Shown here piece after piece: positions 1,602 through 26,290 of a stretch of DNA of 64,000 bases. Position 1 is the first letter of the stretch, and each line of letters opens with the position of its first letter. The position numbers and the translations under genes are program-made. A model generated the notes under the pieces. The model did no database searches. It was not told the DNA's origin and saw only the letters and a list, made by a program, of their open reading frames with translations. The DNA is from Cyanidioschyzon merolae (Eukaryota), in NCBI GenBank assembly GCA_000091205.1, contig AP006489.2. One strand, written 5' to 3'.

Positions 1602-3284
1602 GCCTTTGTTGAGCTGGAAGCCTCACCAGGAATAGGGCCTCTTGCCCAGGCCGTGCGCGAAAACCTTTGCAGGGCGCAACTCGGTCTGAATATGCCAAGA
1701 CTACGCTTCGGTCGCTGCGGTCGTTGAAACTGCGCAACGTTAAAGCTCCAGACGATTGTAGTCGCGGACATGCGGAGTGTTCCTGGGACATTTTTTCGAG
1801 TACGCATGCATCGGCGAAACACCCAGAAACTCTTATGGATGACCGCGGATACGTGTTGCTGCAGGAATGCTAATCGGGACAAGCGCTTGTTAGCCTATTG
1901 CCGATGCGATGACATCGGTCAGGAGGTCAGGTGCGAGGGACTGGGTGCTTCAAGCACCCGGCATACCGCTTCGGGAAGGTTGGCGAATATTTCCATGCGC
2001 TATTGTTAGTCAATGTTTGTAGCCACGGGGGATATGCTTTTCGTTCTTGTTTCGGGATGAAACACGAACGATTACGAGCGCAGGAGCTTCTAGGCTGGTC
2101 AAGGAAGCATGCAGTGCAAGAACGTTTCGATCGAACTTGTCCTTGGTGTGAATAAGTCGCACGGACGGAGACCCAGAGGGCAGCATGTTCCAGGGTTCCC
2201 GTTTCGGTATGCTCCGACGCCGCAGCTCCTTGTCCAAGTTCAGTGTGAACGGGTTATATATATATGTCTATATCAACATGCGTCACGCCTCTGCCTCGCA
2301 ATACGACGTCACAGAACGCCTGCCGGCGCGTACCCTGGTACTCGATAGACCGTACTCGAAAGAGCGTCACTGACGCGGCCCTATAATACAAAGCAATCAT
2401 ATCACGAATATTCGTATCGTCGTCATATTTTTTCGATCGGACACATCACCCAGAATAGCATACGCATGTCCACGGCCTCGCGGGCCGGGCCGAGCGCCCA
2501 CCGAGCCAGCTCGTAACCGTGGAACAAAGCTCTGGTGCAGCAGTCAGGGTGTAGTCCCATGTTTCCAGTGCTCGCTTGAATGTCCAGACCTGGATATTAA
2601 GGTCGTGCCCGGGCTCATCGCCGTCCTGGGATGTGAGATGGGCTCACCAGTCAGAAACAGGTGCAGGACTAACCAATGAGCGCACGTTCGAGTTCAGCTT
2701 CGGATGGAAACGAATGACAGGCGGGAGACGGCTGGCATATTATGCCCAGCTGCTTGAACATCACGCTACCCACATAGACAGCATCTTTTAGTGTCATGAA
2801 CACAAGCAAATACGCTTCTCCACGCAGCGCGGTCACGATGGGATGCGCAGCCTGTGTCCTTCGGGATCCTGCAACGTACGTACAGCGTATCCAGAAGGGG
2901 CGAATTTCGCGCTGTGAAGACGCAGTGCCGCGGGAGGGGCGTCGCAAGCCCCGGAATCGAATATACCAATTGCCATAATGATCACTAGAACCTGAAAAAC
3001 GCAGGTTGCAGCAACTTCACAGACGACAAGTACGGCATGGCGAGTCTGTTACGCAGAAAGTTTACCGGGTGCCAAAAACGTTCTGATGTGGGCATCAAGC
3101 GCTGGTCCGCAGCGTTCTCCCTGAAGCCGTTGTGGGTTGCAAGACACCCCATGCGCTAATTGGTTCGATTCGAGCTCCCAACTGTCCCTAATTTAGAAAT
3201 CTCACTTCATGAGCACGAGCGCTCGACTTGAGTTCAGGTGCGGCGCTAGCAATCCAGGGAATTTCCTCCAATGTGCGGACCCTA

Positions 3285-4709
3285 TTAGGGTTTGTAATAG
3301 TTCGTCTTAACGAATGGCATTTTGACTACTTCACCTGGCACAAGTTTTCCCCGAATTTTCACTGAAATACGCGTACCGACAGCGTCCATAGGCTTCGAGA
3401 TGTAACCCATACCAATAGCGCAGTTCCGTGTGGGGGAGAATCCTCCCGAAGTCACAGTACCGATCACGGCGTTATCGGCAGCTTTCGGTGAATTTTCGTG
3501 AATCGTTTCGTGTCCACGAGCTGGTGGTCCCCCGTGAAGGACAAAGCCTACTCTTTTCTTCTGCACGATACTTGGATTGGCAATCTCCTTGAGTATCACG
3601 TCTGCACCGAGGAACGAGGGCCGGCCATCACCGGAGTCTGGGTTGCGGCGAGACTTGGCAATCGTCCACGTTAAACCAGCGCTCACGGGCGTCGTGTTCT
3701 CATCAATATCGTTACCGTAGAGACAAAGGCCAGCTTCCATGCGCAGCGAGTCCCGTGCACCGAGACCACACGGAAGCACCGCTTCATTGGACACGAGCAT
3801 TTCGAAGAGCTTCGGCGCATCCTGATTGTGCACACTGATCTCAAAGCCGTCCTCTCCTGTATACCCGCAACGAGATACGAGCAAGTAATCAGAGAAAGCA
3901 GGTGCCTTGACCATCCGAGCATTCATGAACGCCATCTGCTCTAGGTTCAGTGTGCTTCGGTCGACAATATGCTGCAGTACCTGCATCGCTTTCGGGCCTT
4001 GAAGTGCCAGCAGCGAGCGATCCGCTAAAAACTCCAAGCGAACATCCATGCCGTCGACCTCGCGGGCGCGTCTCTCATGTGCTCGCAGGTGCGCCATGTC
4101 CTTATCGACACAGGCGCCATTGATCACCATATTCAGGGCTTCCGCCCCAGTATTGTCCTTTCCTAGGTTCGTAATGATCGTATCGTCAATGATACCTCCG
4201 TGCTCGTTCGTGAGTAGCGACAAAACCGCTGTACCCGCCGGGAGTGCCTGTAGATCCGCGACGATGAGTCTCTCGAGGAAGCGGACGCGGTCGGTGCCGT
4301 ACACGCGCACCTGCCCCATGTGCGAGACATCAAACACACCAGCCGACTGACGAACCTGCAAGTGCTCGTTTTTTATCCCGCCTTTCTCGCCAGAGTACAT
4401 CACTGGGAGCGCATAGCCTGCAAAGGGAACCATTTTGCCCCCGTACTTCAGGTGCGTCTCATACAGCGCGGTATGTTTGAGTTTCTCCTCAGGGCTCGGC
4501 TGCGTGGCGGACGTTGTGCTTGCCTGGCGGTAGCGCAAATGACCGTTTGCAATCCAATTCAACGGTGACAGACGCTTGTGCGTTTCGCCCCGCAACAGCG
4601 CTACCGGAGCACTTAGGCGGTGCCCAGGGTGCTTCCCCGCTACAAAACGCACTTCCGACGCACATACTGCGCTCAATTCAAGCCACCTGTTCAGAATCCG
4701 AGCTGCCAT
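3285..4709 (-). CDS. AMT: Aminomethyltransferase, the glycine cleavage system T protein, with a mitochondrial-type presequence.
   Basis: The 474-aa ORF carries GcvT hallmarks: 'TALYETHLKYGGKMVPFAGYALPVMY', 'GVFDVSHMGQ' and a conserved C-terminal barrel. The N-terminal ~80 aa are rich in R, S and A. Confidence 0.9.
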   Translation of the reverse strand: MAARILNRWLELSAVCASEVRFVAGKHPGHRLSAPVALLRGETHKRLSPLNWIANGHLRYRQASTTSATQPSPEEKLKHTALYETHLKYGGKMVPFAGYALPVMYSGEKGGIKNEHLQVRQSAGVFDVSHMGQVRVYGTDRVRFLERLIVADLQALPAGTAVLSLLTNEHGGIIDDTIITNLGKDNTGAEALNMVINGACVDKDMAHLRAHERRAREVDGMDVRLEFLADRSLLALQGPKAMQVLQHIVDRSTLNLEQMAFMNARMVKAPAFSDYLLVSRCGYTGEDGFEISVHNQDAPKLFEMLVSNEAVLPCGLGARDSLRMEAGLCLYGNDIDENTTPVSAGLTWTIAKSRRNPDSGDGRPSFLGADVILKEIANPSIVQKKRVGFVLHGGPPARGHETIHENSPKAADNAVIGTVTSGGFSPTRNCAIGMGYISKPMDAVGTRISVKIRGKLVPGEVVKMPFVKTNYYKP

Positions 4710-5247
4710 AGCGTATCAGATGACGAGAGGCTCCCCTAAGAAACCGAGCTCCCAGATAAAGCCCTTCTTTCCCAAGGTCCAGGGATGAGCAACGTTTCGT
4801 TGCACTAGAAACTTGCTGCAATGCGATGCAGCAGCAGCAGCGCCGTCTATGATCATTCTTAAGCCGCATCGCCGCTACCGTCTGGGGACGTGTTCGCACA
4901 ATCCCAGTGCAGAAGCCTGCCACGACGCACAGCAGAGTCTTTGGAGATAGCCAGATTCCTTCGGAAGGGCGCAGTGAACAGTTTTAGCTGGGCCTCCGTG
5001 TGTGGTCGGTGATACGCTGGTGACGCTACTCTAGCGTTTGCAGCGATACTAGTAGTGTCGGTGTTCGTGCCCGCGCCCCGTGCTGGAAACGGTGCAGGTC
5101 AACGGCCTCGAACGCGGTAGCGCGCAAAGGCTGGTGCTATTGCGCGAACGCATTCGAGGCAGACCCGTTGCTGTCTAAAACAGATCCTCAGGACGTCTCG
5201 TGCGCTTGGTAAATTCTGTGCTGCACGCATAGCGATGGCGTGGAGTC

Positions 5248-7305
5248 ATGGCCAGTGGCAGTGGAAGCGATGAGCGCGTGCCACTCTTGGGCGAACGTGG
5301 ACGGCCGACAGGCGCTGTGGCGGCTACAGCTGCCGAAACCGCTCATAGTCGTGATCCGGTTGGACGAGCTCAGAGCGATCGTGAGCGTGTTTGCCTTGCA
5401 AGTCGGGGTCGACGCGCTCACAGGCTCGACGAGTTGTGTTTCTGGCTGATATATGCCGTACTCCTGGTGGCTTCCATAGTCTGGGCGCTGATCAGCGCCA
5501 AGATGCGTGGACACCAACGACTGCAGGGAGAGCCTGTCGTGCCCGAGCCTGCGGTGGCGAATACTGAATCAGCATCGTTTTGCCAGGTCGGCAGTACTGG
5601 ATGGAATAAGCACCGCACACGTCTCGGTTGGTCATGTACCAGTGAGCTCCGGTCTCGCGTAACGCTTGGGCGCGCTGTCAGCCAGTCTGCGCCCCTATCC
5701 ATCCTTGAGAAGGTGAAATCAACCTGTCCAAACTGGCGACGGTTGCTCCAGTATCCGGCGCTATGTCGCCGCCAGGAGCGCTCTGTCTCAGGATGCGGCT
5801 CCTTCCTCTGGATAAGCGATTTGCATGTGGATTACTGGTTCGATCCTCGCGTGCCTCCGACGTTGTGTGGTGAACGCAAAGTCTGTCGCCCGGCGGAGCT
5901 CGTCTACAATGTGTCATCCCAGGTGCGCGATGCGAGCATTCCCAATAACCCTGCCGTGCCTGTGCGGGATGTAGCCACGACATATACCTACGGACGGCCC
6001 GGATGTGATCCTCCGCTGCCTCTCTTGGAGTCTTTGACGGAAGCGATGAAAAAGGTCGATAGTGATCCTGACTTTATTCTCATCACAGGTGATCTGGCTC
6101 CGCATGACCTGCCTTCTCGCGCATATGTGCTCAGGAGCCTCAATGCATCTGCGCAGCACCTTTCTGCAACTGTTTGCGGCGCGCTGGGCAACAGCGGTGA
6201 GTCTCAGCGACGGTCGCCAAGATGCATCGTAGTTGTCGGCAACGTCGATCTGTTTCCGACGTTGCACATACCTATAGAGGCGAAACCTGTGAGCTCCGCA
6301 GAACGCTATGATGCAGAGAACAATAATCAACCGGTGCGCTTTCGGGACCTGTACGAACTCTACGTTACCGCAGGCATTCTGGATCCAGAGAATGAGGCGC
6401 TGCGCAGATCGTTCACTGTGGGCGGATATTACAGAGCGTATGATGATGGCAAGCTGCGAGTTCTGGTATACAACTCTCTCCATTACATCGCTGGGAGGCT
6501 CTTCAGTTCAGCGAGTGCACTGAACAGAACGAATGCATCGCCCGCTTTGCCCTTCTACGCCCTGCCTTGTGAACAATGGAAGCAGGTGCTTCCAGATGCG
6601 GATGATCCTGCGGGCCAGTTTGCCTGGCTCGAGGAGGAATTGCAGGATGCTGAACAGAACGGACGATCCGTTTTCCTTGCTTCTCACATCGGACCGGGCA
6701 GTAAAACTGGTTCCCGGGCCTGGTGTGCACCCTATGTTACCCGCTTTGCGGACTTGTTGACCAAGTATGCAGACACAGTGACCATGCAGTTTTACGGTGA
6801 TTTATCTCGTGAAGAATTGCGCTTGATTGAGCCTTATGGTTCGCCGAATGGAACCAGCGAAATGCGAGGACTAGCTCTTCTCATCAATCCCGGACTTACA
6901 CCGAGACGGATGCCTGGTGGTGCGCCGACATTTCGCCACTGCTTCTTCGACCGCGGCATACACCGAGCGAAGCAGGTAGCTCAGCGAAGACGCGGTGACC
7001 ATGTGTTCGCACCGGTGACCTTGCTTGACTATCACGCGTATGCGTTTCCGCTTCAGCACACCGTGATAGAGCGAATGACTCGGGGCGCGAGCGCGCCTCA
7101 TCCCGAATGGCGCTGGCGGTACAGCTTTGCGGAACAGTTTTGTGTTCCGCACCTGTCGGCGTCGACGCTGCGTCAGGTCATTCAGAACATTGCATCGGAG
7201 CCCGAGTTCATGGAGGCCTACACCTTGCGCACGGAGGATGGCCTCGAGAGCGATCTCGACTTGAGCGCAGCAGTCGGAAGCCTTCGAGTCCAACCTGCTG
7301 CCTAA
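5248..7305 (+). CDS. Acid-sphingomyelinase-like phosphodiesterase, a calcineurin-like metallophosphoesterase, built as a type II membrane protein.
   Basis: The 685-aa ORF has an N-terminal TM anchor ('FWLIYAVLLVASIVWALI'). Metallophosphoesterase motifs are present: 'SDLHVDYW', 'ITGDLAPHD' and 'VVVGNVD'. The length and C-terminal region are ASM-like. Confidence 0.7.
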   Translation: MASGSGSDERVPLLGERGRPTGAVAATAAETAHSRDPVGRAQSDRERVCLASRGRRAHRLDELCFWLIYAVLLVASIVWALISAKMRGHQRLQGEPVVPEPAVANTESASFCQVGSTGWNKHRTRLGWSCTSELRSRVTLGRAVSQSAPLSILEKVKSTCPNWRRLLQYPALCRRQERSVSGCGSFLWISDLHVDYWFDPRVPPTLCGERKVCRPAELVYNVSSQVRDASIPNNPAVPVRDVATTYTYGRPGCDPPLPLLESLTEAMKKVDSDPDFILITGDLAPHDLPSRAYVLRSLNASAQHLSATVCGALGNSGESQRRSPRCIVVVGNVDLFPTLHIPIEAKPVSSAERYDAENNNQPVRFRDLYELYVTAGILDPENEALRRSFTVGGYYRAYDDGKLRVLVYNSLHYIAGRLFSSASALNRTNASPALPFYALPCEQWKQVLPDADDPAGQFAWLEEELQDAEQNGRSVFLASHIGPGSKTGSRAWCAPYVTRFADLLTKYADTVTMQFYGDLSREELRLIEPYGSPNGTSEMRGLALLINPGLTPRRMPGGAPTFRHCFFDRGIHRAKQVAQRRRGDHVFAPVTLLDYHAYAFPLQHTVIERMTRGASAPHPEWRWRYSFAEQFCVPHLSASTLRQVIQNIASEPEFMEAYTLRTEDGLESDLDLSAAVGSLRVQPAA

Positions 7306-9855: not shown

Positions 9856-12492
9856 CTAGAAACGTTCCTGGATAAAGAGGATCGGTTTCTTCGTACCGAG
9901 GCGCTCGGGTTGCCTCTGGACTTTGTGCATGGCCCGTCGAACACTCGCACCAAGGGCTGGATTCCCACAGAAAAAGATGCCTCTTTGTACGTCGTTGGAG
10001 AAGCCAGACACGCGATTGAACTGTTTCACCTGGATAATGTTCCCAAAAAGTCTTTCAAACTCGTACGGATCGCGCAGGTCCAACAAATCCTCGATGAACG
10101 TTTCAAAGCGGGGCCGTCCCTGGTGAAACTGCAGTATCGACTTGGTTGATTGGCCGGCTTCCAGGATGCTCGCAGGAATCTCGCCTCTCGTCAGAAATAT
10201 GTGTACCCGAACGCGCGGAATCAGGTCAGGAGTCCAGGTTTGCGCCAAGTCGAACAGGCCTTGAATACCCCACAGGTCCGCGTATTCGCGCACCACCCAG
10301 ACAAAAGTTAGACTGAACACGTTCGCATACAGACGCTGCTCCTGCTGCTCCTGCTGCTCCTGCTGCTCCTGCTGCTCCTGCTGCTCCTGCTGCTCCTGCT
10401 GCTCCTGCTGCTCCTGCTGCTCCTGCTGCTCCTGCTGCTCCTGCTGCTCCTGCTGCTCCTGCTGCTCCTGCTGCTCTACATGGGAGACCTTATCGTCGGA
10501 TTGGACGCACCGCTGCTGCGCCACAGCTGTCCCAAGACCGTTCCCCCTCCGCGAGAGCAAGGCGCTCGCTTTCCGTCCCAGATGACGCACGCGCCTCAGC
10601 TGGATACGCCACGGCCGCGGCAGATAGAAAATTCTGAGGGTCAGCGCAAACATGATACTTTTGATACAGAAGAGGACGAGGGCGATGATGCGCATCGCAT
10701 TCCCTGCGCCGTCCATATAATGCGACGAGTGTTGTTCGATGCCGAAGAGCGTTGCACCCACGACCAGGTCTGCAACGAGGAGTCCGCAAACACTCAGTGA
10801 TACAAAGCCGCGCGGGGTGCCGACGTAACGCCAGCGAGGCGGATCCAATGTCACCAGCATATCCGACGCAATCGTGAACGAGAAGAGAAAAAGAAGCACT
10901 GCCGAGCTGGTGAAATCCGCAACTAAGGCTACATTGGCATCGAATGCATTTGCGATGACATAAATCGTCAAGCTAATGTACAGCATCCAGAGCAGACTGA
11001 ACAGCCAGAGGCTACTCAATACAAAAGCCCGTAGTCGATCAATTCGCGTTTCCGTTTGGAATATTCCAACGCGCTCTTTCATGTACATCGAAAGGATGCC
11101 AGATTTCCGTATTCGATCCAGCAACTGTGCCGATGTTTCCTGTTTGCTCAGTGTATCGAGAGTCCCGTGCTGCGTTCCGGCCCTGATTCCTCGAATATCA
11201 TCATCGGACGCATCCGCGATGCCGGCCAATTTGGCGGGAGCACGAGCGCTACATATTTCCCGGAGTATGGAGACCATCGGGGTTGCACCAACGCCGCTTC
11301 CGATCAGCAACTGGTAGGGAAAGTGCAGATGGGACTGCGCCGGTGCTCCATACGGGCCTGCCAAGAGCACCCGGTACGCCTCGATTGTCGTCATACATAT
11401 CCGTTCAGGGGCCAAATCGAGGCCGTCCGCCGTTGTTGTCGCTGCTTCTGCCACTGCTGCTTCTGCAAGGCTGTGCAGCCTGCGAGTCCATTTGCCCACT
11501 GCCGCAATGTAGAACGTGATGCGATCCGAGTCGCATGACGGTGCGCTTGCGGCTGTGAACGGATGCCAAGCATCAGCGGGCATACCACACCCTTTGCGCG
11601 TGTCGATGATCATGATCTTGAAATACTGGCCCGGTAGGTAGACCGCGTTCCGTCGTTCAACGGAGAGCTTCACGATATTGGAGTTTGCCTGAGCCAGACT
11701 GAGCACCAGGATGCGCCGAGGAGTTACGGTCGCCCGGGAGAGCTGATACAAGCGGTCGATGATATAGAGGAATACCGGGCCTGCGAAGAAGTACACCGTC
11801 CAGGGCCGGCCGCCTCGCAAGCCGTGAAATACCAGACAGATGTATACCAGGACCGCAATCGGACGGTGCGTCCACCAGAACAGGCGGAACCATTTCCGGC
11901 GTACAGTTTCAACTCCAAAACCGAGCAAAGGAACCAGCAAAACCATGAGCACCACACCTGTGACAAAAAGCATGGTCGCTGGCAGTGCCGCTGGTCCCGT
12001 GAACAAACCGCCACGAAATACGAACACGCTCGCAGCGTAGTTGACGATCTGGGCGATGCCGTGAATCCAGCCGGTTGCGGCAAGTGACGTCCCTACGATG
12101 GTGTGCATGTCGGGTATCCATCGCTCCACACATAGCAGGTCGTAGAGAGGTGTGCGGTACAGAACCGTCGCTAGAGTGCGGTTTATCGTGAGCGGGAGGA
12201 CAAGCGAACAGAATGTGCACGCAAATCCCATGCCCCGTGCGATGGATCCCGCATACCGCAGGATACCACTGGGGCGCAAGTCGACGATAACGTAGCGTAC
12301 CCCGTAAGCAAAGAACCACGACATGGCACAGAAGAACAGGAGAACAATCGAGTACCAAAGCCCGTTTTCAACGAGGTGGATATTCCATATTTGCGTACGT
12401 TCCGTCAGGCTGGGATCGAGATTCGACTCGTTCTGTTTTGCTTTGTTCATCAGTATCGTACGAAAAACGCAGATGGAATAACCACAAGTCAA
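9856..12492 (-). CDS. NADPH oxidase / ferric-reductase family protein (NOX/Rboh-like). A ~330-aa insertion with four predicted TM helices plus a (QEQ)n tract lies inside the NADPH-binding domain.
   Basis: The 878-aa ORF has the ferric-reductase TM domain with His-containing helices. It has the FAD-binding 'HPFTAAS' and the NAD motif 'LLIGSGVGATP'. After the insertion the C-terminal NOX tail is 'FFCGNPALGASVRRA'. The insertion contains 4 hydrophobic helices and the QEQ tract. The reading frame stays open for ~1 kb, so coding is favoured over an intron. Confidence 0.85.
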   Translation of the reverse strand: MTCGYSICVFRTILMNKAKQNESNLDPSLTERTQIWNIHLVENGLWYSIVLLFFCAMSWFFAYGVRYVIVDLRPSGILRYAGSIARGMGFACTFCSLVLPLTINRTLATVLYRTPLYDLLCVERWIPDMHTIVGTSLAATGWIHGIAQIVNYAASVFVFRGGLFTGPAALPATMLFVTGVVLMVLLVPLLGFGVETVRRKWFRLFWWTHRPIAVLVYICLVFHGLRGGRPWTVYFFAGPVFLYIIDRLYQLSRATVTPRRILVLSLAQANSNIVKLSVERRNAVYLPGQYFKIMIIDTRKGCGMPADAWHPFTAASAPSCDSDRITFYIAAVGKWTRRLHSLAEAAVAEAATTTADGLDLAPERICMTTIEAYRVLLAGPYGAPAQSHLHFPYQLLIGSGVGATPMVSILREICSARAPAKLAGIADASDDDIRGIRAGTQHGTLDTLSKQETSAQLLDRIRKSGILSMYMKERVGIFQTETRIDRLRAFVLSSLWLFSLLWMLYISLTIYVIANAFDANVALVADFTSSAVLLFLFSFTIASDMLVTLDPPRWRYVGTPRGFVSLSVCGLLVADLVVGATLFGIEQHSSHYMDGAGNAMRIIALVLFCIKSIMFALTLRIFYLPRPWRIQLRRVRHLGRKASALLSRRGNGLGTAVAQQRCVQSDDKVSHVEQQEQQEQQEQQEQQEQQEQQEQQEQQEQQEQQEQQEQQEQQEQQEQRLYANVFSLTFVWVVREYADLWGIQGLFDLAQTWTPDLIPRVRVHIFLTRGEIPASILEAGQSTKSILQFHQGRPRFETFIEDLLDLRDPYEFERLFGNIIQVKQFNRVSGFSNDVQRGIFFCGNPALGASVRRAMHKVQRQPERLGTKKPILFIQERF
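10335..10476. repeat. In-frame 9-nt microsatellite (CTGCTCCTG)~15.8, encoding (QEQ)n inside the NOX CDS.
   Basis: A perfect 9-bp periodicity is visible over ~142 bp. On the minus strand it translates to QEQQEQQEQ. Confidence 0.9.
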
Positions 12493-19219: not shown

Positions 19220-20578
19220 TTGCATCGAGACATGGTCAACACGGCGACCACAGAGTCGGCTCGACCCGAGTCGAGAGCGATTACTGCGGCGGAGCTCCCC
19301 GCGAAGCTTGAACAACTGCGCGCTGAAGCAGAGACCGGTGGCGACACGAAGCCCGTCATAGAGGCCCTGTACGCGTTGGAAAAGAAGTTCCGTTTGGCCG
19401 ATGATGCGAACGCTACAGCGCTGGTAGCTACTGAGATCGTTCGTCTTGCCTGGCAGCAAGGCCGAGTGCCCGCACTCGTAGAGCACCTGCGACTGCTCAG
19501 CCGTCGTCGGGCGCAGCTCAAGCAGGTTGTTGCGACGATCGTGCGCGAGGGAATGCAGTACCTCGATCGAATAAAAGATGTTGCGGAGAAACGTGAGCTG
19601 TTGGAAGTGCTGCGCGATATATCCATGGGGAAACTGTTCCTGGAACTGGAGCGTGCGCGTCTCACCAGAATGCTAGCCGAGCTCATGGAGCAAGCCGGAG
19701 ATATTAGTGGTGCCGGGCGTGTGCTGAACGAACTCCAGATTGAAACATTCGGAAGCATGGAGCGTCAGGAAAAATGGACTTTTATGCTGGAGCAGATCAG
19801 GCTCTGCCTTGATCTCGAGGACACTGTTCGCGCGCAGATTATTGCGAACAAGTTCACAGCCCGAACACTGGTCGACGAGGAGTTCAGGAAGAGCCCCATC
19901 AAGACTAGGTATTATATGCTGATGATTCGACTGTATACAATGCAGCAGCGTTTGAAGCTCGCGGACGACACCCGTTTCATTGATATTGCCAGGGCATACC
20001 TTGCGCTTGGGGAGGAATTCCTGGGCAACGCGGCGCTGTATACGATCCTTGCTCCCCGGAACCATGAGCAACACGATCTGCTGCATCGATTGTCCCAACG
20101 TCAGCCATTGCTCGAGAACAAATCACCGCTCCGTATATATGGCGAACTCCTGTCACTGTTCCGGATCGAAGAGCTTATCCGCTGGCCAATCTTCGTTCAA
20201 TCATACCGCAGTGCGCTGGAGGAGAAGCACCCGGACTTGAACTGGTTGTACTTGCAACGCCGTGTTCACGAGCACAATCTGCGAGTGATCGCCAAATATT
20301 ACCGACGGATTCATTTGTCTCGTTTGGCTGCGCTTATGGAAGTCGATGAGGATACCGTGGAAGATCTGCTCTGCGATGAGATAACGAGTGGACGGATATG
20401 GGGCCGCATCGATCGTATCGATGGTATCGTGAGTTTTCAAAGGGAACGAAAACCAGAGGAGATTGTCTCTGAATGGGCGCAAAACGTCGACGAGGTGCTC
20501 GCTTCTGTGGACCGTCTCGATGAGTTGGTGAACAAGGAACGTCAGCAACGGGCGGTGCCTACGAGCGGTACGAGCTGA
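19220..20578 (+). CDS. RPN5: 26S proteasome regulatory subunit Rpn5 (PSMD12), PCI domain
   Basis: The 452-aa ORF follows the Rpn5 pattern along its length: N-terminal TPR-like helices, then the PCI domain ('RVIAKYYRRIHLSRLAALMEVDEDTVEDLLCDEITSGRIWGRIDRIDGIVSF'). The length matches PSMD12. Confidence 0.9.
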   Translation: MHRDMVNTATTESARPESRAITAAELPAKLEQLRAEAETGGDTKPVIEALYALEKKFRLADDANATALVATEIVRLAWQQGRVPALVEHLRLLSRRRAQLKQVVATIVREGMQYLDRIKDVAEKRELLEVLRDISMGKLFLELERARLTRMLAELMEQAGDISGAGRVLNELQIETFGSMERQEKWTFMLEQIRLCLDLEDTVRAQIIANKFTARTLVDEEFRKSPIKTRYYMLMIRLYTMQQRLKLADDTRFIDIARAYLALGEEFLGNAALYTILAPRNHEQHDLLHRLSQRQPLLENKSPLRIYGELLSLFRIEELIRWPIFVQSYRSALEEKHPDLNWLYLQRRVHEHNLRVIAKYYRRIHLSRLAALMEVDEDTVEDLLCDEITSGRIWGRIDRIDGIVSFQRERKPEEIVSEWAQNVDEVLASVDRLDELVNKERQQRAVPTSGTS

Positions 20579-21039
20579 AACGCACTGCATCGTTTCATGC
20601 GTGTTGAAAACGCTCTGAGGAGCATTGGCATCAGGCATCTGGCTTACGTATCCCAGAATACATGCATCGTCTACGAAATCGACCTGGCGTCATGGAGTGT
20701 CCATCGAACTCGCGGCAGTCCAGTGTGCTGGATCCAGGAAGAAATGCATAGCACCAGGTCGAGAAGCTGTTGTTGTTGTTGTTGACATCAATCTGAGTCC
20801 ATGTCAGAGTGAAATGTACGAGGTCCTCTATTTCGGTCGTACGCAATAATGTTGGGGTCTATTCACGCTGTCATGAACACCAGACACTGTAGTATTTTTC
20901 TGCGGCTGCTTCGCGTATCTCGCTCCTTTATTCGGCTTTAAAAACGCTGGTCTCGCCTGTCCTTTCAGCTTCGTTCTGAACAGTCGAAGGATGTCAATGG
21001 CAGGATTACAATCCGGATTTTACAGTTTGCGGCTGCTGT

Positions 21040-21615
21040 TGACGCATTTCATTAACAGACAAAAATTGCTATTGACGCTTCGCTTGTTATTGTCATCCTC
21101 TTCGTATCCACCCTCGGTACGCCCTTCGATGCATTGACACACGACTATGATGCGTTTTTTTCGTATGTGTGTACGGAACCTCTCCTCCTCGAACGCTACG
21201 CTGTGAAACGTGGACGCTTCGTGTATCGCTCGAAACATGCGCTTGGCGGATACAGAAGGCCCTCATCGATACCATCCGTCGTTTTTGCACCTGGTGCTGT
21301 GTCCTACGATCATAGGCTTCTTCTGAGAAATGCCCTCGGCGAGTACGCTGTCCGCCGCTCACGCAAGCACGCGCTGTTCCATTCGACAGAGGATCTGTGG
21401 AACGCGAGATTGTCCATGAAAGGAAAATTACCCTATGGAAAATCCACACTGGAGATCAAACCGAGAAATATCGATTCGTCTACGCGACCCACTTGCAAAA
21501 AAAGTACCGCGTTATCCACTGGTAGCGATTACTGCGATGGCTCAAGTCCGAGTCCATGGCCCTTTACGATGCGGACGGGCGACAAAGAGCCCTCTGGGAG
21601 CATATCCCATCATAT
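21040..21615 (+). repeat. Interspersed repeat family B, copy 2
   Basis: Nucleotide similarity to 15080-15645 and 41805-42365. Matching blocks include 'gacgcttcgcttg', 'tgatcataggcttcttctgagaaatgccctcggcgagtacgc' and 'gaggatctgtggaacgcgagattgtccatgaaagg'. The same orientation holds for all copies. Confidence 0.6.
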
Positions 21616-23274
21616 GGATCATGCTCACGTCGAATGCATTCTCGATGATACTCCCATAGAGGCGAGGATTTGGCATTCGAACGGAATCCATTCTTTAAAG
21701 TTGCGTATTCAGCAATCGCTCGGCATGGGCTCGTAAAGAAGTCGTCGAGGGGCGACGTCGAGATTCTTTCCTCGTCAATCCACTGGCGCGAATTGCAACG
21801 TGTATGATTAGTTAATGAAAAGAAAAATCGAGTTATTGAAGTATGCGTGATTTGAGCATGTTCGCTGTCAGGAACTGGGAGGCGTGCAGGTTAGCGCATA
21901 TAAACTGGATAGTCGTATCTGCCGCTTTACGAACCATTGTTCGAGGGCTTCGCGAATGTTCTTCACTCCGGTGAGATAACGCATTCCATTGGTGACATGT
22001 TTTAGGCACTTCTACGGAGCGAAGACCAAGAATCCTCAACAGTACTTACGGACCCGTAAACCCATATTGGAGTACTTCGATTGTCGAGGCTGTATATCTT
22101 GAGGAAAAATCACCCGGAAAAATAATCGAGATACAAGAAGCGAGCGATCAGTCTAGTGTTCCATTTTACTCTGACACGGGTGTCGTACCCTGCGACTTTT
22201 CTGATGACTGAGATTTCGGTGACTGCTCGCGAAAACGCGTCCGATTTCAGGGCAACTAGACATATCTTCGGAGTAAATCGAAGCCGCAGGCTATGGTCGA
22301 CTAGCGAGAACAGTCTCGTGCGTCACGCACGTGATAGACACCGGGGAATGACCGAAAACCAGAGGCGCTTCCGTGCCCGCTGCTCCCTCGCTGGATGAAG
22401 TCCATGCAAAATCCTGCTTCCAAAGCAAAACCTTTGACAACAGATATGCATCTCAACCTCTTTCTTCTGAGTTTCCGGATTTCACACTGCTTATTGCTGG
22501 GTCACAAAGCGCTCTGCCAACTTCTTTCCCTCAAACGCCATCGTCCGCACCAAGGCCACACAAGTTCGCTCGTACCGATTCCGGCCTGTTCTCGACATGC
22601 CTCGTTCTTCCTCATCGGTACCGAGCTTAAAATTCGTTGCCTGTAGCACCGTCTTCATGTCTGCGGAAACAGTTCCTCGGGTTGCGAGGCAGTGTGAGCG
22701 CCCATGGCCTGCATTCAAGTCAAACCGAATGCATTATCCAAGTACGATGTACGCATGCGTTTCATGCTCATGTGCGCTATGCTTGACCGATCCCCGGGAC
22801 GCTTTAGTTTTTGAACCATCCTGGAGACGCTATGACGCCAGGCGATTCCCGCTGCAACCCTGGGACGACGGTTACCAAGTCCCGTCTCGTGGCCACTACA
22901 GAGGCTGCGGGCTCTACGAAGCCAATTCTCACTGCTGTGCGGTGTGTGAAACAATCTTTGCTTCGGTCCAGTGTCGCTCGAGTAGTTCTCTGCCGCCATT
23001 GGACCTATTTATGCGATCGAAAGTCCGTACCGAACCGGATTTGTTTTGCACGGAAAGCGCCGGTCTTGAGGTAAGTTTACCGTCCTGATGCTGTCCTCAT
23101 TTCCTGGGTCGCAGCTGCAGAACAACCCCGAAAAGCACATGTCTCTCTCTTTAGCGAGCCGTGAACGCTCTAAACTTGTCCATTAAAGCAAGAGTAGCTC
23201 GAACCGGTCAAACGTACATCCCAACAGTGCAAGCGCGACGCAATGCATAGGCGAGCCGCTGGCTGCTAGGTAGC

Positions 23275-23946
23275 GTGCGCAGTAAACAGCAGCGACTGGC
23301 AATAAAGGCCGCAGCGTTTCCCACGTCGCACTTTTTGGACACGGGAGCGCACCAGCGACCAAGGCACTCAGCTGCAGGAACGAAGCGGATGCTTCGAGTG
23401 CTTCGCAGGTCTTCGAGTTTCAACCTGGTCGGGCCTTTCCCGGCTGCGATCCGGCCGAGGCTGGGTGTTCGGGAACAGAGCGGCGCGGCCAGTTATGTGG
23501 AAAGCCTCACGCAGCTGGGTCGCAAAGTGACACTGCCCAAGTCACCGTCGGAAGCTGTTCTTGAGAAAGTTGCAAACATGCACGAGAATTACCCTTACGT
23601 GACGCGCTTCACCTGCCCCGAGTTCACGTCGCTCTGTCCTCTTACAGGGCAACCGGACTTTTGTCATATGGTAATAGACTATGTGCCAGACAAGTGGCTC
23701 GTGGAGAGCAAATCGCTAAAGTTGTATTTACATTCGTTTCGTAATCACGGAGACTTCCACGAGGCATGCACTATTGGTATTGCCCGTAGGCTCACGACGG
23801 AACTAGAACCCAAGTGGCTGCGCATCGCGGGCTACTGGTATCCGCGTGGTGGCATTCCAATCGATGTCTTCTACCAGACGGGGGAGCCACCAAAAGGTCT
23901 CTGGATACCCGATACAGGTGTTCAGCCGTATCGCGGTAGAGGCTGA
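23275..23946 (+). CDS. queF: NADPH-dependent 7-cyano-7-deazaguanine (preQ0) reductase, QueF type I, with an ~80-aa N-terminal extension.
   Basis: The match to bacterial QueF is near-verbatim: '[55 protein letters not shown]' then '[12 protein letters not shown]'. The catalytic Cys in CPxTGQPD and the ESKSLKLYL motif are both present. The extension '[26 protein letters not shown]' resembles an organellar targeting peptide. Confidence 0.85.
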
Positions 23947-24689
23947 ACTGCAGCGGCATTTGTCTCGTGTCGGATGCAAGTCCGTGATGGATGCGTTTCA
24001 GGCGATGCAGAAGAGAGCAGACAGCCCAGAAACGAAACTCGAGAGAAGCCCAGCGACCAGCGGAATCATCTCATTCACGCACATATTTCTTAGTGTGCAG
24101 GTTGGGTTAGGTTTCAGCAAAAATCATTCAAGTATCTACGTATCTAGCGAGAAACATAGAGTCGCATGAAGCGCACACTGCGTGCTCGCGCTGCTCAACG
24201 AGCTTGAGCAAGATATCTCCATGTGGAAGCGCATTCACTTTGCCGCAGCGAGCAGTAAACGTGCAGACAGAAACTTGCCGGTGCGTCGCCCGCAACGACT
24301 TCGCTCCGCCGAACAACCCGAGTGCATCGCTCACAGCGCCAGATGCCGCTCAAGCGTTCGAACTGGAACGGCGCCTGCGCTCTCCAGGTGCAAAATGCTA
24401 GACCCGGGATCGTTTTCTTGGTCCAGTCGCATAGAGACGGGAACTCGTGTCTCAGCTTATATTAATGATACCGTATTCAATCGCCGCATGCTTCTACGGG
24501 AAGCGTTCTTTTATCAGAGCTTGAAAAGACGCACCCATCATAGACTCGCCTGCACTCCATGATGAAGTACCGCTTCTGGCGAGGAGGGATGCAGGCTCGC
24601 GCGTTCCGCGAAATAATTCCAGTACTTCAGTTCTGGCGAGTATACTTCCAATAAACAACTTCGCGTAAGTATCGCACATACGCATCAGG

Positions 24690-24850
24690 AGCGTCATCAT
24701 CATCATCAGCGTTACTATCACCACCTTGGACATGTTGCCAATGTATTCATTCTCGTGTGTGTAGCGAATGCGCATTACGGTCACCATCGCCATCACCACC
24801 ACCATCATCAGCAGCAGCAGCAGGAGCAGCAGCAGCAATGATGTGAAAAA
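24690..24850. repeat. Imperfect trinucleotide repeat tract, (ATC/ACC/AGC)n mixture
   Basis: Runs of catcatcatcagc, caccaccaccatcatcagcagcagcagcaggagcagcagcagc are visible. The tract lies in the 3' flank shared by the convergent queF and queD genes. Confidence 0.5.
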
Positions 24851-24900
24851 TACCGCCAGTAACGGTACCAGCATCGAATACCGCACGCCGTATTTGCAGT

Positions 24901-25443
24901 TTAGCTGACAGGCCCGTAGGCGTGATCGAACGATGTCTCGTGATCGTGCTCTATTCGGTGCAGTGAGTCGAGAGGTTTCGGTCGATAGATTGCACGGGCA
25001 GTCGCTGTTTCCTCCACTGTTACAGCAGATAAACAAGGAATAGAAGGTTTCAGCTTCCGATACGCCCAGTACGCAATATACTCAGCAGTTGGCGCGTCTG
25101 TCTCTAAGGTCTCGTTCAAGTGCTGGTGATCAAGAAACTTTTCCACAAGAGGGCGAACGACGGCTGCGATCTCGTCAAAGTCCATGACCATGCCTTTCTT
25201 GGGACCAGAGGTCACCAGCGCCTCCGTCGATACTTCCACAACCAGCACGTACGAGTGACCGTGTAATCGACTGCACTTCGAGTCGTGGTGTTGTAGACAA
25301 TGGGATGCCTCGAAGGGGAACCGCTTCTCCAGAATAAACATGGCTGATGTTGCGTTCACCGCTGACCCAGCAGGCCTCAGAACACTTTCTCGCACCAGCG
25401 GCTGAAGCGCGTTCCCGGTTGACAGGGAAGCAGCGCACGCCAT
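24901..25443 (-). CDS. queD: 6-pyruvoyl-tetrahydropterin synthase / QueD family (COG0720) T-fold enzyme. The functional start is probably the internal Met at ~25341.
   Basis: 'MFILEKRFPFEASHCLQHH...CSRLHGHSYVLVVEV' matches the PTPS/QueD N-terminus (FxFxAAHRL-type) and the C-x3-HGH zinc motif. The convergent queF neighbour argues for a role in 7-deazaguanine synthesis. Confidence 0.8.
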   Translation of the reverse strand: MACAASLSTGNALQPLVRESVLRPAGSAVNATSAMFILEKRFPFEASHCLQHHDSKCSRLHGHSYVLVVEVSTEALVTSGPKKGMVMDFDEIAAVVRPLVEKFLDHQHLNETLETDAPTAEYIAYWAYRKLKPSIPCLSAVTVEETATARAIYRPKPLDSLHRIEHDHETSFDHAYGPVS

Positions 25444-26290
25444 GAGTCGAGGCTGGCGAAGGCGACCCGACGCCGGGCCGCTACGCAGCTCGGGGGGAGT
25501 AAAGCGACGCCCCGTCGTTGTCGGTATCTTTATGGACGAAGCGTCAGACCCCGAGGCAAGACTCTACACATGGGTCTATGAAAAGGCTCCGAAACTTCTA
25601 TTGCCCACAAATGTGACGGTAAACCGTCTCGAGGAGACGAGCGCCGTAGCCTCGTCAACAGCGCTGAATGCCTTCGTAGCCGGGGCGCTTGGCTCCGACG
25701 AGCCTGTCTCCAGTCGCCTCGCAGACCGCGTTTTGCTTCTGGGCAATCCCTCTAAGCATACGCGCAGGCGGGAGAGTGTTCTTGGTGGACAGAAAAGGCG
25801 TCGGTTGAAACCGAGTCGGCAGAGGCGGCAGGTGCAGCCGCTTACCGCTCGAGAGCGACGCAGACTCGGGTTGTATAAGCTGGACAAGCGCATTCCTTAC
25901 GCAGAGGTGCAACCACTGGCGCAGCTCTGGCTGGAGTACGCACAGTCCATGATCCCCGTGCAACAGCTCGACCGACTGCGGCAGCAGGAGCGAGAAGCAG
26001 TGCTCGACCGCCTTCTTCGGCTGGACTGGCACGGGGCCAGCATCACAGTGCACCAGAGCGCTGCCCCGGAGCGCGTCGGTGTTCACGGCATTGTTATTCA
26101 GGAGACTGAACAGACATTTAAAATCGTGTCGCCTGACTCTCGATTGCGTGTTCTGCCCAAGCTATCGACGGTGTTCACGGTGGACCTCAGCGACGACTGG
26201 GTGCTGGTTCTCTGCGGTGATGCCTTGCGAGTGCGGAGCGCGGAACGGTCCGTACGGAAACCGAAACGAAAAGCGCTGCTTCTTGTTTGA
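25442..26290 (+). CDS. POP4: Ribonuclease P/MRP protein subunit Rpp29 (POP4)
   Basis: The C-terminal Rpp29 Sm-like domain reads 'LDWHGASITVHQSAAPERVGVHGIVIQETEQTFKIVSPDSRLRVLPKLSTVFTV'. The N-terminal part is basic and low-complexity. The annotated ATG overlaps the queD ATG (CATG at 25441-25444), so the true start may be the downstream Met. Confidence 0.7.
   Translation: MSRGWRRRPDAGPLRSSGGVKRRPVVVGIFMDEASDPEARLYTWVYEKAPKLLLPTNVTVNRLEETSAVASSTALNAFVAGALGSDEPVSSRLADRVLLLGNPSKHTRRRESVLGGQKRRRLKPSRQRRQVQPLTARERRRLGLYKLDKRIPYAEVQPLAQLWLEYAQSMIPVQQLDRLRQQEREAVLDRLLRLDWHGASITVHQSAAPERVGVHGIVIQETEQTFKIVSPDSRLRVLPKLSTVFTVDLSDDWVLVLCGDALRVRSAERSVRKPKRKALLLV

Follow-up and report, generated by a model that had tools for sequence, protein, structure and literature searches.

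The window considered here, a stretch of 64,000 nucleotides from the red alga Cyanidioschyzon merolae (GenBank assembly GCA_000091205.1, contig AP006489.2), harbours two genes of bacterial type that encode enzymes for dedicated steps of queuosine precursor synthesis. One specifies QueF, the NADPH-dependent reductase converting preQ0 to preQ1, the other QueD, the 6-carboxy-tetrahydropterin synthase. Both genes are convergent, with QueF on the plus and QueD on the minus strand, and 954 bp separate their stop codons. A first-pass annotation, made from the nucleotide sequence alone, had already placed both open reading frames (ORFs) where they were found and had described them as lying tail to tail at a distance of about 950 bp. 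According to reviews and a paper from 2025, eukaryotes are unable to synthesise queuosine and depend on bacteria for queuine (PMC5699537, PMC11695743, PMC12301720). A eukaryote in which enzymes for two dedicated precursor steps are conserved and under selection calls this salvage-only rule into question.

Gene models and enzyme identity of QueF and QueD

Translation of QueF from the ATG at position 23389 yields a protein 100% identical to the deposited C. merolae 10D sequence (BAM79612.1, XP_005535898.1, UniProt M1VBD8), which is annotated as 'hypothetical protein, conserved' and appears in UniRef as an NADPH-dependent nitrile oxidoreductase. The ORF tool places the start further upstream, at a GTG codon at 23275, and no in-frame ATG precedes 23389. 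The N-terminal extension of approximately 80 amino acids (aa) proposed in the first-pass annotation had been counted from this GTG and shrinks to about 31-39 aa when counted from the ATG.

Table 1. Features of the QueF-QueD locus, with positions given in window coordinates
Feature	Coordinates	Strand	Basis or remark
QueF coding sequence (185 aa + stop), unimodular NADPH-dependent preQ0 reductase	23389..23946	+	Identity to deposited protein; TIGR03139; match to 4F8B
QueF N-terminal extension, aa 1-39, putative organellar presequence	23389..23505	+	Missing from bacterial homologues of 148-154 aa
CPLTGQPD, aa 83-90	23635..23658	+	Catalytic Cys83 (B. subtilis Cys55) and Asp90 (Asp62); alignment to 4F8B
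ESKSLKLYL, aa 106-114	23704..23730	+	QueF (NADPH-binding) motif E(S/L)K(S/A)hK(L/Y)(Y/F/W); ESKSLKLY = aa 106-113
HGDFHEACT	23746..23772	+	His124, Glu125 and Cys127 = B. subtilis His96, Glu97 and Cys99 (protective disulfide partner)
Spacer between the QueF and QueD stop codons	23947..24900		Presumably both 3' untranslated regions; 121-806 bp in three orthologous loci
QueD coding sequence with Met35 (deposited numbering) as probable start (146 aa + stop); 6-carboxy-tetrahydropterin synthase, PTPS-I type	24901..25341	-	PF01242; TIGR03367; starts of orthologues
KCSRLHGH, PTPS-I signature CxxxHGH	25255..25278	-	Cys57, His61 and His63 (180-aa numbering); alignment to E. coli QueD
Additional 34 codons at the N-terminus of deposited QueD (BAM79613.1)	25342..25443	-	Absent from three relatives; overlaps the Rpp29 ORF
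Rpn5/PSMD12, proteasome lid subunit (PCI)	19220-20578 (alternatively from 19232)	+	PF22241, PF01399; conserved upstream neighbour
Rpp29, RNase P/MRP subunit p29	25442..26290	+	PF01868; conserved neighbour, divergent from QueD

The assignment to QueF is supported by family models, solved relatives and predicted structure. The ORF at 23275-23946 (+) matches the Pfam family QueF (PF14489) with an E-value of 6e-31 and 106.9 bits against a cut-off of 27.3, and the protein reaches 149.6 bits on the NCBIfam equivalog TIGR03139 for unimodular preQ1 synthase (cut-off 86.9), on which two of its orthologues (P0002 and P0004) score 145-148 bits. On the contrary, it remains far under the cut-off of the bimodular model TIGR03138 (53 versus 293 bits). 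In a phmmer search of solved proteins, the top relative is the QueF protein of Bacillus subtilis (4F8B, E 2e-37). The AlphaFold model, with a mean predicted local distance difference test (pLDDT) score of 82 and a core above 90, likewise finds its best PDB match in 4F8B, with a target-normalised TM-score of 0.74. Foldseek fills ranks 1-5 with 4F8B, 4FGC and 5UDG (E 5e-14, 51% identity), followed by weaker matches to QueF-like proteins (~1e-7) and GCH1 (~1e-6), while bimodular QueF also ranks behind the unimodular enzyme. Thus, the type I QueF recognised in the first pass is borne out, whereas the membership in a GTP cyclohydrolase I-like or other family outside QueF, which that annotation had named as grounds for abandoning the assignment, is not what was found in either sequence or fold.

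The functionally important residues of B. subtilis QueF, which we take to be Cys55, Asp62, the motif around E78, His96, Glu97 and Cys99, all have counterparts in the algal protein. Here, PDB entry 5UDG refers in its title to a Cys55-Cys99 disulfide of the B. subtilis enzyme. All three motifs reported in the first pass, CPLTGQPD, ESKSLKLYL and YPRGGI, were recovered from the ORF, the latter at aa 151-156 in ATG numbering, and the catalytic Cys, Asp, His and Glu positions, the QueF motif and Cys127 are invariant across 30 aligned homologues. As judged from these alignments, QueF has the residues required for the NADPH-dependent reduction of preQ0 to preQ1.

QueD is encoded by an ORF of 180 aa at 24901-25443 (-), which is identical to BAM79613.1, XP_005535899.1 and UniProt M1VG59 and was deposited as 'similar to 6-pyruvoyl tetrahydrobiopterin synthase'. 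It matches the Pfam family PTPS (PF01242) with an E-value of 5e-33, and it exceeds the cut-off of the equivalog TIGR03367 (89.25 bits) both at full length (95.3 bits) and in a 146-aa version (96.7 bits), while its red-algal and chlamydial relatives obtain 90.7-99.9 bits on the same model. The best solved relatives are the E. coli QueD structures 3QN0 and 4NTM (E 3e-24), and the protein of Caenorhabditis elegans is the sole eukaryotic PTPS among the solved matches (E 3e-5).

Members of COG0720 can be told apart by signature motifs: CxxxHGH marks PTPS-I/QueD, ExxHGH PTPS-III, CExxHGH the PTPS-I/III hybrids and CxxxxxHGH PTPS-II (PMC5041015). In the algal protein, the signature Cys is followed by Ser instead of Glu, by which an identity as PTPS-III or PTPS-I/III hybrid was rejected, and three rather than five residues lie between Cys and HGH, by which PTPS-II was rejected as well. 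The CxxxHGH motif is kept in all eukaryote-like QueD homologues aligned. In addition, the remaining catalytic and zinc-binding residues His48, Asp105-His106 and Glu145 (180-aa numbering) occupy invariant columns, and comparison with E. coli QueD revealed that the three zinc-binding His and the catalytic set of Cys, Asp-His and Glu are all retained. Hence, the COG0720 assignment of the first pass can be narrowed to PTPS-I, with which PF01242, TIGR03367 and CxxxHGH agree, and by alignment QueD has the residues required to convert dihydroneopterin triphosphate to 6-carboxy-tetrahydropterin (CPH4).

The start of QueD probably lies downstream of the deposited one. Orthologues at three loci begin with MF(V/T)LEKRF and lack an upstream in-frame ATG, and the extra codons of the deposited model overlap the Rpp29 ORF, the longest version of which meets the deposited QueD ORF head to head with an overlap of 2 nucleotides. 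Because orthologues start at the corresponding residue and the extra codons run into Rpp29, Met35 (position 25341) is the probable initiator and the 34 preceding codons are probably untranslated; Rpp29, in turn, possibly starts at its Met31 (ATG 25532). With these two starts the divergent spacer between QueD and Rpp29 would measure 190 bp, compared with 174-532 bp in relatives. The C-terminus of C. merolae QueD ends in an acidic tail roughly 25 aa long.

Conservation and surroundings of the gene pair

The order Rpn5-QueF(+)-QueD(-)-Rpp29(+) recurs in three other cyanidialean assemblies, namely Cyanidiococcus yangmingshanensis, a JGI hot-spring metagenome contig and a contig of 65% guanine plus cytosine (GC) from ENA ERZ1300892. 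In all three, the gene following Rpp29 occupies the position of a Myb gene in the window, though a Myb Pfam match, and a weak one, was recorded in the JGI metagenome contig alone among these relatives. In four orthologue sets, the proportion of synonymous differences is saturated (pS 0.63-0.87), that of nonsynonymous differences amounts to 0.10-0.25 (pN), and dN/dS is 0.06-0.08 where computable. QueF and QueD are thus kept under purifying selection. Furthermore, both proteins are encoded on one deposited C. merolae 10D record of 584,452 bp.

The ERZ1300892 contig, NODE_82 (64 kb), carries genes for a kinesin, a BAH-AAA ORC1-like protein, Rpn5, Rpp29 and Ctf4/Mcl1 in the order known from C. merolae. 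The source study, which dealt with mats of the Rio Tinto at pH <1, labels these contigs 'cyanobacteria-related' (PMC11052175). Since NODE_82 bears eukaryotic nuclear genes in C. merolae order, it belongs to a cyanidialean red alga and not to a cyanobacterium.

QueF and QueD are 50-77% identical to bacterial proteins, which could arouse the suspicion of an artefact, i.e. contamination, misassembly or decaying relics of a gene transfer. Against this stand the shared gene order in four independent assemblies, GC values (50-60% along the whole window) that match the surrounding DNA, intact ORFs under strong purifying selection and a QueF extension of eukaryotic type, so that an artefact is hardly conceivable; contamination, misassembly and pseudogenisation were each discarded on the basis of synteny, ORF integrity and selection. 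The bacterial contamination that the first pass had weighed itself is likewise at odds with the synteny and the eukaryotic neighbours. Because the same gene order recurs in the three other cyanidialean assemblies, QueF and QueD are not contaminants; they are genuine nuclear genes of a cyanidialean red alga.

Apart from QueF and QueD, the window ORFs with a Pfam match (43 ORFs were scanned) encode ordinary eukaryotic proteins: TRAPP, the glycine-cleavage T protein (GcvT), a ferric reductase, Rpn5, Rpp29, a Myb protein, p24 and SAP30, as well as a ZIP transporter, Utp21, FEN1, a kinase, a ferredoxin-dependent bilin reductase and AlaRS. Thereby, the eukaryotic surroundings described previously, with Rpn5 upstream and Rpp29 downstream, were confirmed. 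The 2.8-kb interval from Rpn5 to QueF (20579-23388) contains no Pfam-recognisable ORF, no tRNA according to ARAGORN and no Rfam match; its length is roughly double that in the relatives. A scan for sigma-70 promoters and terminators likewise gave no informative result. Within the spacer between QueF and QueD, positions 24694-24837 hold short CAT, CACCAT-like and CAG repeats, and these repeats give rise to a spurious Leu/Met-rich ORF of 180 aa on the minus strand (24494-25036). Farther away, a ferric-reductase gene of NOX/FRE type (9856-12492) and a gene for an Fe2+ transport protein (PF10634; 16647-17258) lie about 4 kb apart and possibly cooperate in iron uptake as a pair. Synteny of the ferric reductase extends to the JGI hot-spring metagenome contig and to Cyanidiococcus yangmingshanensis.

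Origins, localisation and a putative route to queuosine

Behind the four cyanidialean sequences, the best matches of QueF are proteins of about 150 aa with 71-77% identity, and those with an organism name all derive from Alphaproteobacteria: Rhodospirillales (two), Stellaceae, Emcibacteraceae and Aestuariivirga. No cyanobacterium occurs among the named best matches. Moreover, C. merolae QueF and alphaproteobacterial QueF have the C-terminal tail GEPPKGxWIPDxGVxPYRGRG in common. A neighbour-joining tree of the best 120 matches, drawn without added cyanobacterial or chlamydial QueF sequences, resolves the monophyly of the cyanidialean proteins (80%) and no other grouping. By sequence, QueF is therefore of alphaproteobacterial type, while the tree does not separate the donor, nor inheritance via the mitochondrion from a later transfer.

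A similar QueF was observed in assembly GCA_016292395.1, where the 3-kb contig JADWZK010277049.1 encodes, at 1643-2419, an alphaproteobacterial-type protein of 72-74% identity that is extended by about 100 aa at its N-terminus. This gene adjoins a GH38 mannosidase gene on the minus strand, which is interrupted by a 98-nucleotide GTAAGT...AG intron (380-283) whose removal restores the frame. Given this intron-bearing neighbour, at least one other eukaryote possesses this kind of QueF.

QueD has a different affiliation. An exhaustive HMMER scan combined with a profile search identified other eukaryotic proteins as its closest relatives, with identities of 60% for Compsopogon caeruleus, 58-60% for Galdieria sulphuraria and G. 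partita and 55% for Porphyridium purpureum. The Compsopogon sequence comes from a transcriptome and is therefore expressed. To judge from these relatives, QueD is old in red algae and spans several of their classes. A further group of about 45 sequences (150-280 aa, with low-complexity tails) stems from algal contigs and forms its own clade. Its loci (Logan SRR23272274, SRR23287140 and ERR9287618; ENA ERZ6863655) show about 50% GC, a nuclear sigma-70 factor and a conserved Band7-QueD-Pus10-Sigma70 arrangement, and LpxC was seen in the ERZ6863655 and ERR9287618 loci alone.

Bacterial QueD sequences were retrieved by a genome scan with two peptide patterns, and among the matches listed the named bacterial neighbours are Chlamydiae (Waddliaceae, Chlamydiales and Parachlamydiaceae). 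Three more QueD-bearing sequences have the pyrH-queD-rpsA-nusA arrangement known from Chlamydiae; Parachlamydiaceae and two chlamydia-like contigs place queD away from other que genes, flanked by pyrH (of the amino-acid kinase family) on one side and by rpsA-nusA(-infB) on the other. In neighbour-joining trees with Kimura distances over about 121 columns, cyanidialean and chlamydial QueD group together with 62% bootstrap (54 sequences), or the red-algal clade lies beside the chlamydial one with the cyanobacterial clade further out (178 sequences), where deep nodes are weak and red-algal monophyly receives 9% support. The features HGHSY, ETAT in place of ETCT and TAVT..ETATARATYR, common to red-algal and chlamydial QueD, agree with a chlamydial affinity. 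The sub-clade comprises red algae, Chlamydiae, some other algae and some phage-like clusters. Regarding the latter, three loci, among them contig JBIOWC010000865.1 of a Blastocatellia metagenome-assembled genome, carry a compact QueC-QueD-QueE-(71 aa)-FolE cluster (in one of them at 2829-5293) that adjoins a ParB-like gene and a GpA-type terminase and looks like a 7-deazaguanine module of a phage or prophage. Its QueD is 55% identical to that of C. merolae.

The bacterial-type tRNA-guanine transglycosylase (TGT) of C. merolae and other algae has been assigned a chlamydial origin (PMC2530860, PMC2376095, PMC2490706). As QueF is of alphaproteobacterial type while QueD, like the published TGT, is affine to Chlamydiae, the pathway looks like an evolutionary mosaic and not like a cyanobacterial inheritance. 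Accordingly, of the cyanobacterial or other bacterial origin surmised in the first pass, the bacterial part holds and the cyanobacterial part does not.

All four cyanidialean QueF orthologues carry an N-terminal extension, although its sequence is not conserved. In C. merolae it comprises about 31 aa beyond a bacterial QueF of 154 aa, or 39 aa if counted to the conserved LTQLGR, and is predicted to be disordered (block-mean pLDDT 48-55). The extensions are rich in Arg, Ser and Leu, and in C. merolae no acidic residue occurs before aa 29. In general, rhodophyte plastid transit peptides have an aromatic residue such as Phe among their first few positions. Targeting was judged by composition and by comparison with two controls from the window, the plastid bilin reductase (MAFLASS) and the mitochondrial GcvT (MAARILNRW). 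The QueF orthologues start with MLRVLRR, MASASLQ, MPNLLDQ and MHRPHST, hence without Phe among the first residues in any of the four, and by this composition heuristic the C. merolae N-terminus resembles the GcvT presequence more than a plastid start of the 'MAF' type. The extension is thus probably a mitochondrial presequence. QueD, in which no presequence is conserved among the three relatives compared, appears cytosolic. From the organellar, Arg/Ser-rich extension of the first pass, the basic character therefore persists, but neither the length nor the plastid type, and on the same heuristic grounds plastid targeting of the two proteins finds no support.

These data also bear on the reading originally put forward for the locus, a plastid-targeted 7-deazaguanine pathway derived from the cyanobacterial endosymbiont. 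It would be in line with the Ser- and Arg-rich QueF extension, with the listing of the C. merolae TGT as plastid-localised by Huang and Gogarten (PMC2530860), and with the fact that cyanobacterial QueD (45-50% identity) is barely less similar than chlamydial QueD (49-52%). On the other hand, it is opposed by the exclusively alphaproteobacterial named matches of QueF, by the placement of QueD beside red-algal and chlamydial sequences, and not inside the cyanobacterial clade, in both neighbour-joining trees, weak as their deep nodes are, by the missing early Phe that distinguishes the QueF orthologues from the plastid control, and by QueD lacking a presequence in the three relatives. A plastid pathway of cyanobacterial descent is therefore improbable. 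With respect to compartment, bacterial-type TGT has been predicted to be mitochondrial in algae (PMC2376095).

From the enzymes at hand, the following route can be proposed. GTP would be converted by GTP cyclohydrolase I, and QueD would subsequently form CPH4 in the cytosol. QueE and QueC, assumed to be encoded elsewhere in the genome, would yield preQ0 from CPH4. QueF, after import into an organelle (in all probability the mitochondrion), would then reduce preQ0 to preQ1 on site, thereby supplying the substrate of the chlamydia-derived bacterial-type TGT. Finally, TGT followed by QueA and QueG would finish queuosine on those organellar tRNAs that have GUN anticodons. The Cyanidioschyzon genome has been listed as encoding a chlamydia-type TGT (PMC2530860), and QueA and QueG have been reported for some red algae (PMC12301720). 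If QueE and QueC are present, the alga would be independent of bacterial queuine, which would fit a life in acidic hot springs and in inorganic medium. The joint proposal, that functional and inherited nuclear QueD and QueF, an organellar QueF and QueE/QueC encoded elsewhere enable the alga to make its own preQ1 by a mosaic pathway, is given slightly better than even chances. The more far-reaching claim that Cyanidiales, and possibly red algae more widely, synthesise preQ1 and queuosine de novo by such a pathway, and hence are the first queuine-independent eukaryotes, is tentative and falls just short of an even chance.

Several points weigh against this proposal. QueC, QueE and FolE were not found in the 64-kb window, either by tblastn with queries from the phage-like cluster or by Pfam, so that the de novo step depends on the assumption of QueE and QueC genes elsewhere. 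The division between cytosol and organelle necessitates transport of preQ0 or an earlier intermediate, the localisation of QueF derives from composition heuristics and two controls, and TGT has, as mentioned, been listed for the plastid. The margin of QueD over the TIGR03367 cut-off is narrow (95-97 versus 89.25 bits), and PTPS-I enzymes are said to be promiscuous, reportedly following work by Phillips et al. in 2012. In addition, the convergent genes have no common promoter, and since QueD of Galdieria and Porphyridium is nowhere near QueF, the adjacency is a feature of the Cyanidioschyzon/Cyanidiococcus lineage and by itself not strong functional evidence. Nevertheless, it is unlikely that two bacterial genes of the same pathway lie side by side in a eukaryote by chance, which a rough estimate puts at ~1% for any adjacent pair among 8 pathway genes in ~5000 genes.

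Some of these points would equally suit a salvage-only scheme, in which QueE and QueC do not exist, QueF reduces environmental preQ0, set free for instance by archaea and bacteria living in acidic springs, for TGT and QueD fulfils another pterin role, such as a PTPS-like activity, by virtue of PTPS-I promiscuity. Such a scheme would account for the missing QueC, QueE and FolE in the window and for the marginal equivalog score of QueD, as well as for QueD genes without adjoining QueF in Galdieria, Porphyridium and the other algal group, which indicate that the two are not obligately linked; it also has a published counterpart in Chloropicon, modelled to import the precursor preQ1 without synthesis (PMC12301720). 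It is difficult to reconcile, however, with a QueD that exhibits the QueD-specific CxxxHGH, lacks the PTPS-II and PTPS-III motifs and has CPH4 synthases as best solved relatives. Furthermore, BlastP with Chloropicon YhhQ returned bacterial matches only, a YhhQ-type transporter is not known from red algae, and C. merolae grows in inorganic medium. Salvage without synthesis is hence regarded as unlikely, though it deserves consideration.

A product other than tRNA queuosine, such as 7-deazaguanine in DNA or a deazapurine secondary metabolite, would be reminiscent of the 55%-identical QueD in the phage-like cluster beside a terminase, and preQ0 is indeed known as a precursor from which both DNA modifications and antibiotics derive (PMC5699537). 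Yet no DpdA-like or toy-like genes were seen in the window, and QueF directs preQ0 towards preQ1, on which bacterial TGT acts; as a TGT of bacterial type is documented for C. merolae, such a product is very improbable.

No paper on QueF, QueD, QueE or QueC turned up in a literature search, be it for Cyanidioschyzon, Galdieria or the nuclear genome of any alga. The enzymes themselves are ordinary members of known families; new are the host, the mosaic origin and the implication that a eukaryote may synthesise preQ1. At the least, the locus points to a precursor-processing route previously undescribed in eukaryotes. Moreover, QueD joins the set of chlamydia-like red-algal genes, and the pathway illustrates that organellar tRNA modification can be built from several bacterial donors. 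If the de novo pathway holds true, Cyanidiales would be the first eukaryotes shown to be queuine-independent, and the final steps would occur within an organelle. C. merolae can be grown axenically in inorganic medium and is amenable to gene targeting by homologous recombination, and therefore the question of whether a eukaryote can make queuosine is directly testable in this alga.

Comparison with known systems

The animal PTPS-II of the tetrahydrobiopterin pathway shares PF01242, the T-fold and the substrate with QueD. It features, however, CxxxxxHGH instead of the QueD motif, and the C. elegans enzyme is a far weaker match to the algal protein than E. coli QueD (E 3e-5 versus 3e-24). With E. 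coli QueD (3QN0, 4NTM), on the contrary, the algal enzyme has in common the CxxxHGH signature, the three zinc-binding His and the set of Cys, Asp-His and Glu at 44% identity, whereas HGHSY, four residues inserted ahead of GPK and ETAT for ETCT set the algal sub-clade apart.

In the case of QueF, the B. subtilis enzyme (YkvM; 4F8B, 4FGC, 5UDG) is the best match in sequence and structure among solved proteins, with a core identity of about 51%, the same single T-fold, the same catalytic Cys, Asp, His and Glu, ESKSLKLY and a counterpart of the Cys55/Cys99 pair. The algal protein differs in being nuclear-encoded, in its unstructured basic N-terminal extension and in a C-terminal tail as found in alphaproteobacterial QueF.

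The chlamydia-derived TGT of algae acts in the same pathway and displays the same apparent affinity as red-algal QueD, but is a different enzyme; the portions of the published lists of chlamydia-like genes considered here mention no pterin synthase or other que gene (PMC2530860, PMC2376095, PMC2490706). The closest physiological parallel is the mitochondrial salvage proposed for Chloropicon and 'some red algae', which involves YhhQ and BL-TGT as well as QueA and QueG (PMC12301720). Its components are likewise nuclear-encoded proteins of bacterial type with organellar presequences, and preQ1 from QueF would serve as substrate for these downstream enzymes as well. While the Chloropicon model relies on the import of preQ1, contains no precursor-making enzyme and makes no mention of QueD or QueF, C. 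merolae possesses two enzymes upstream of TGT.

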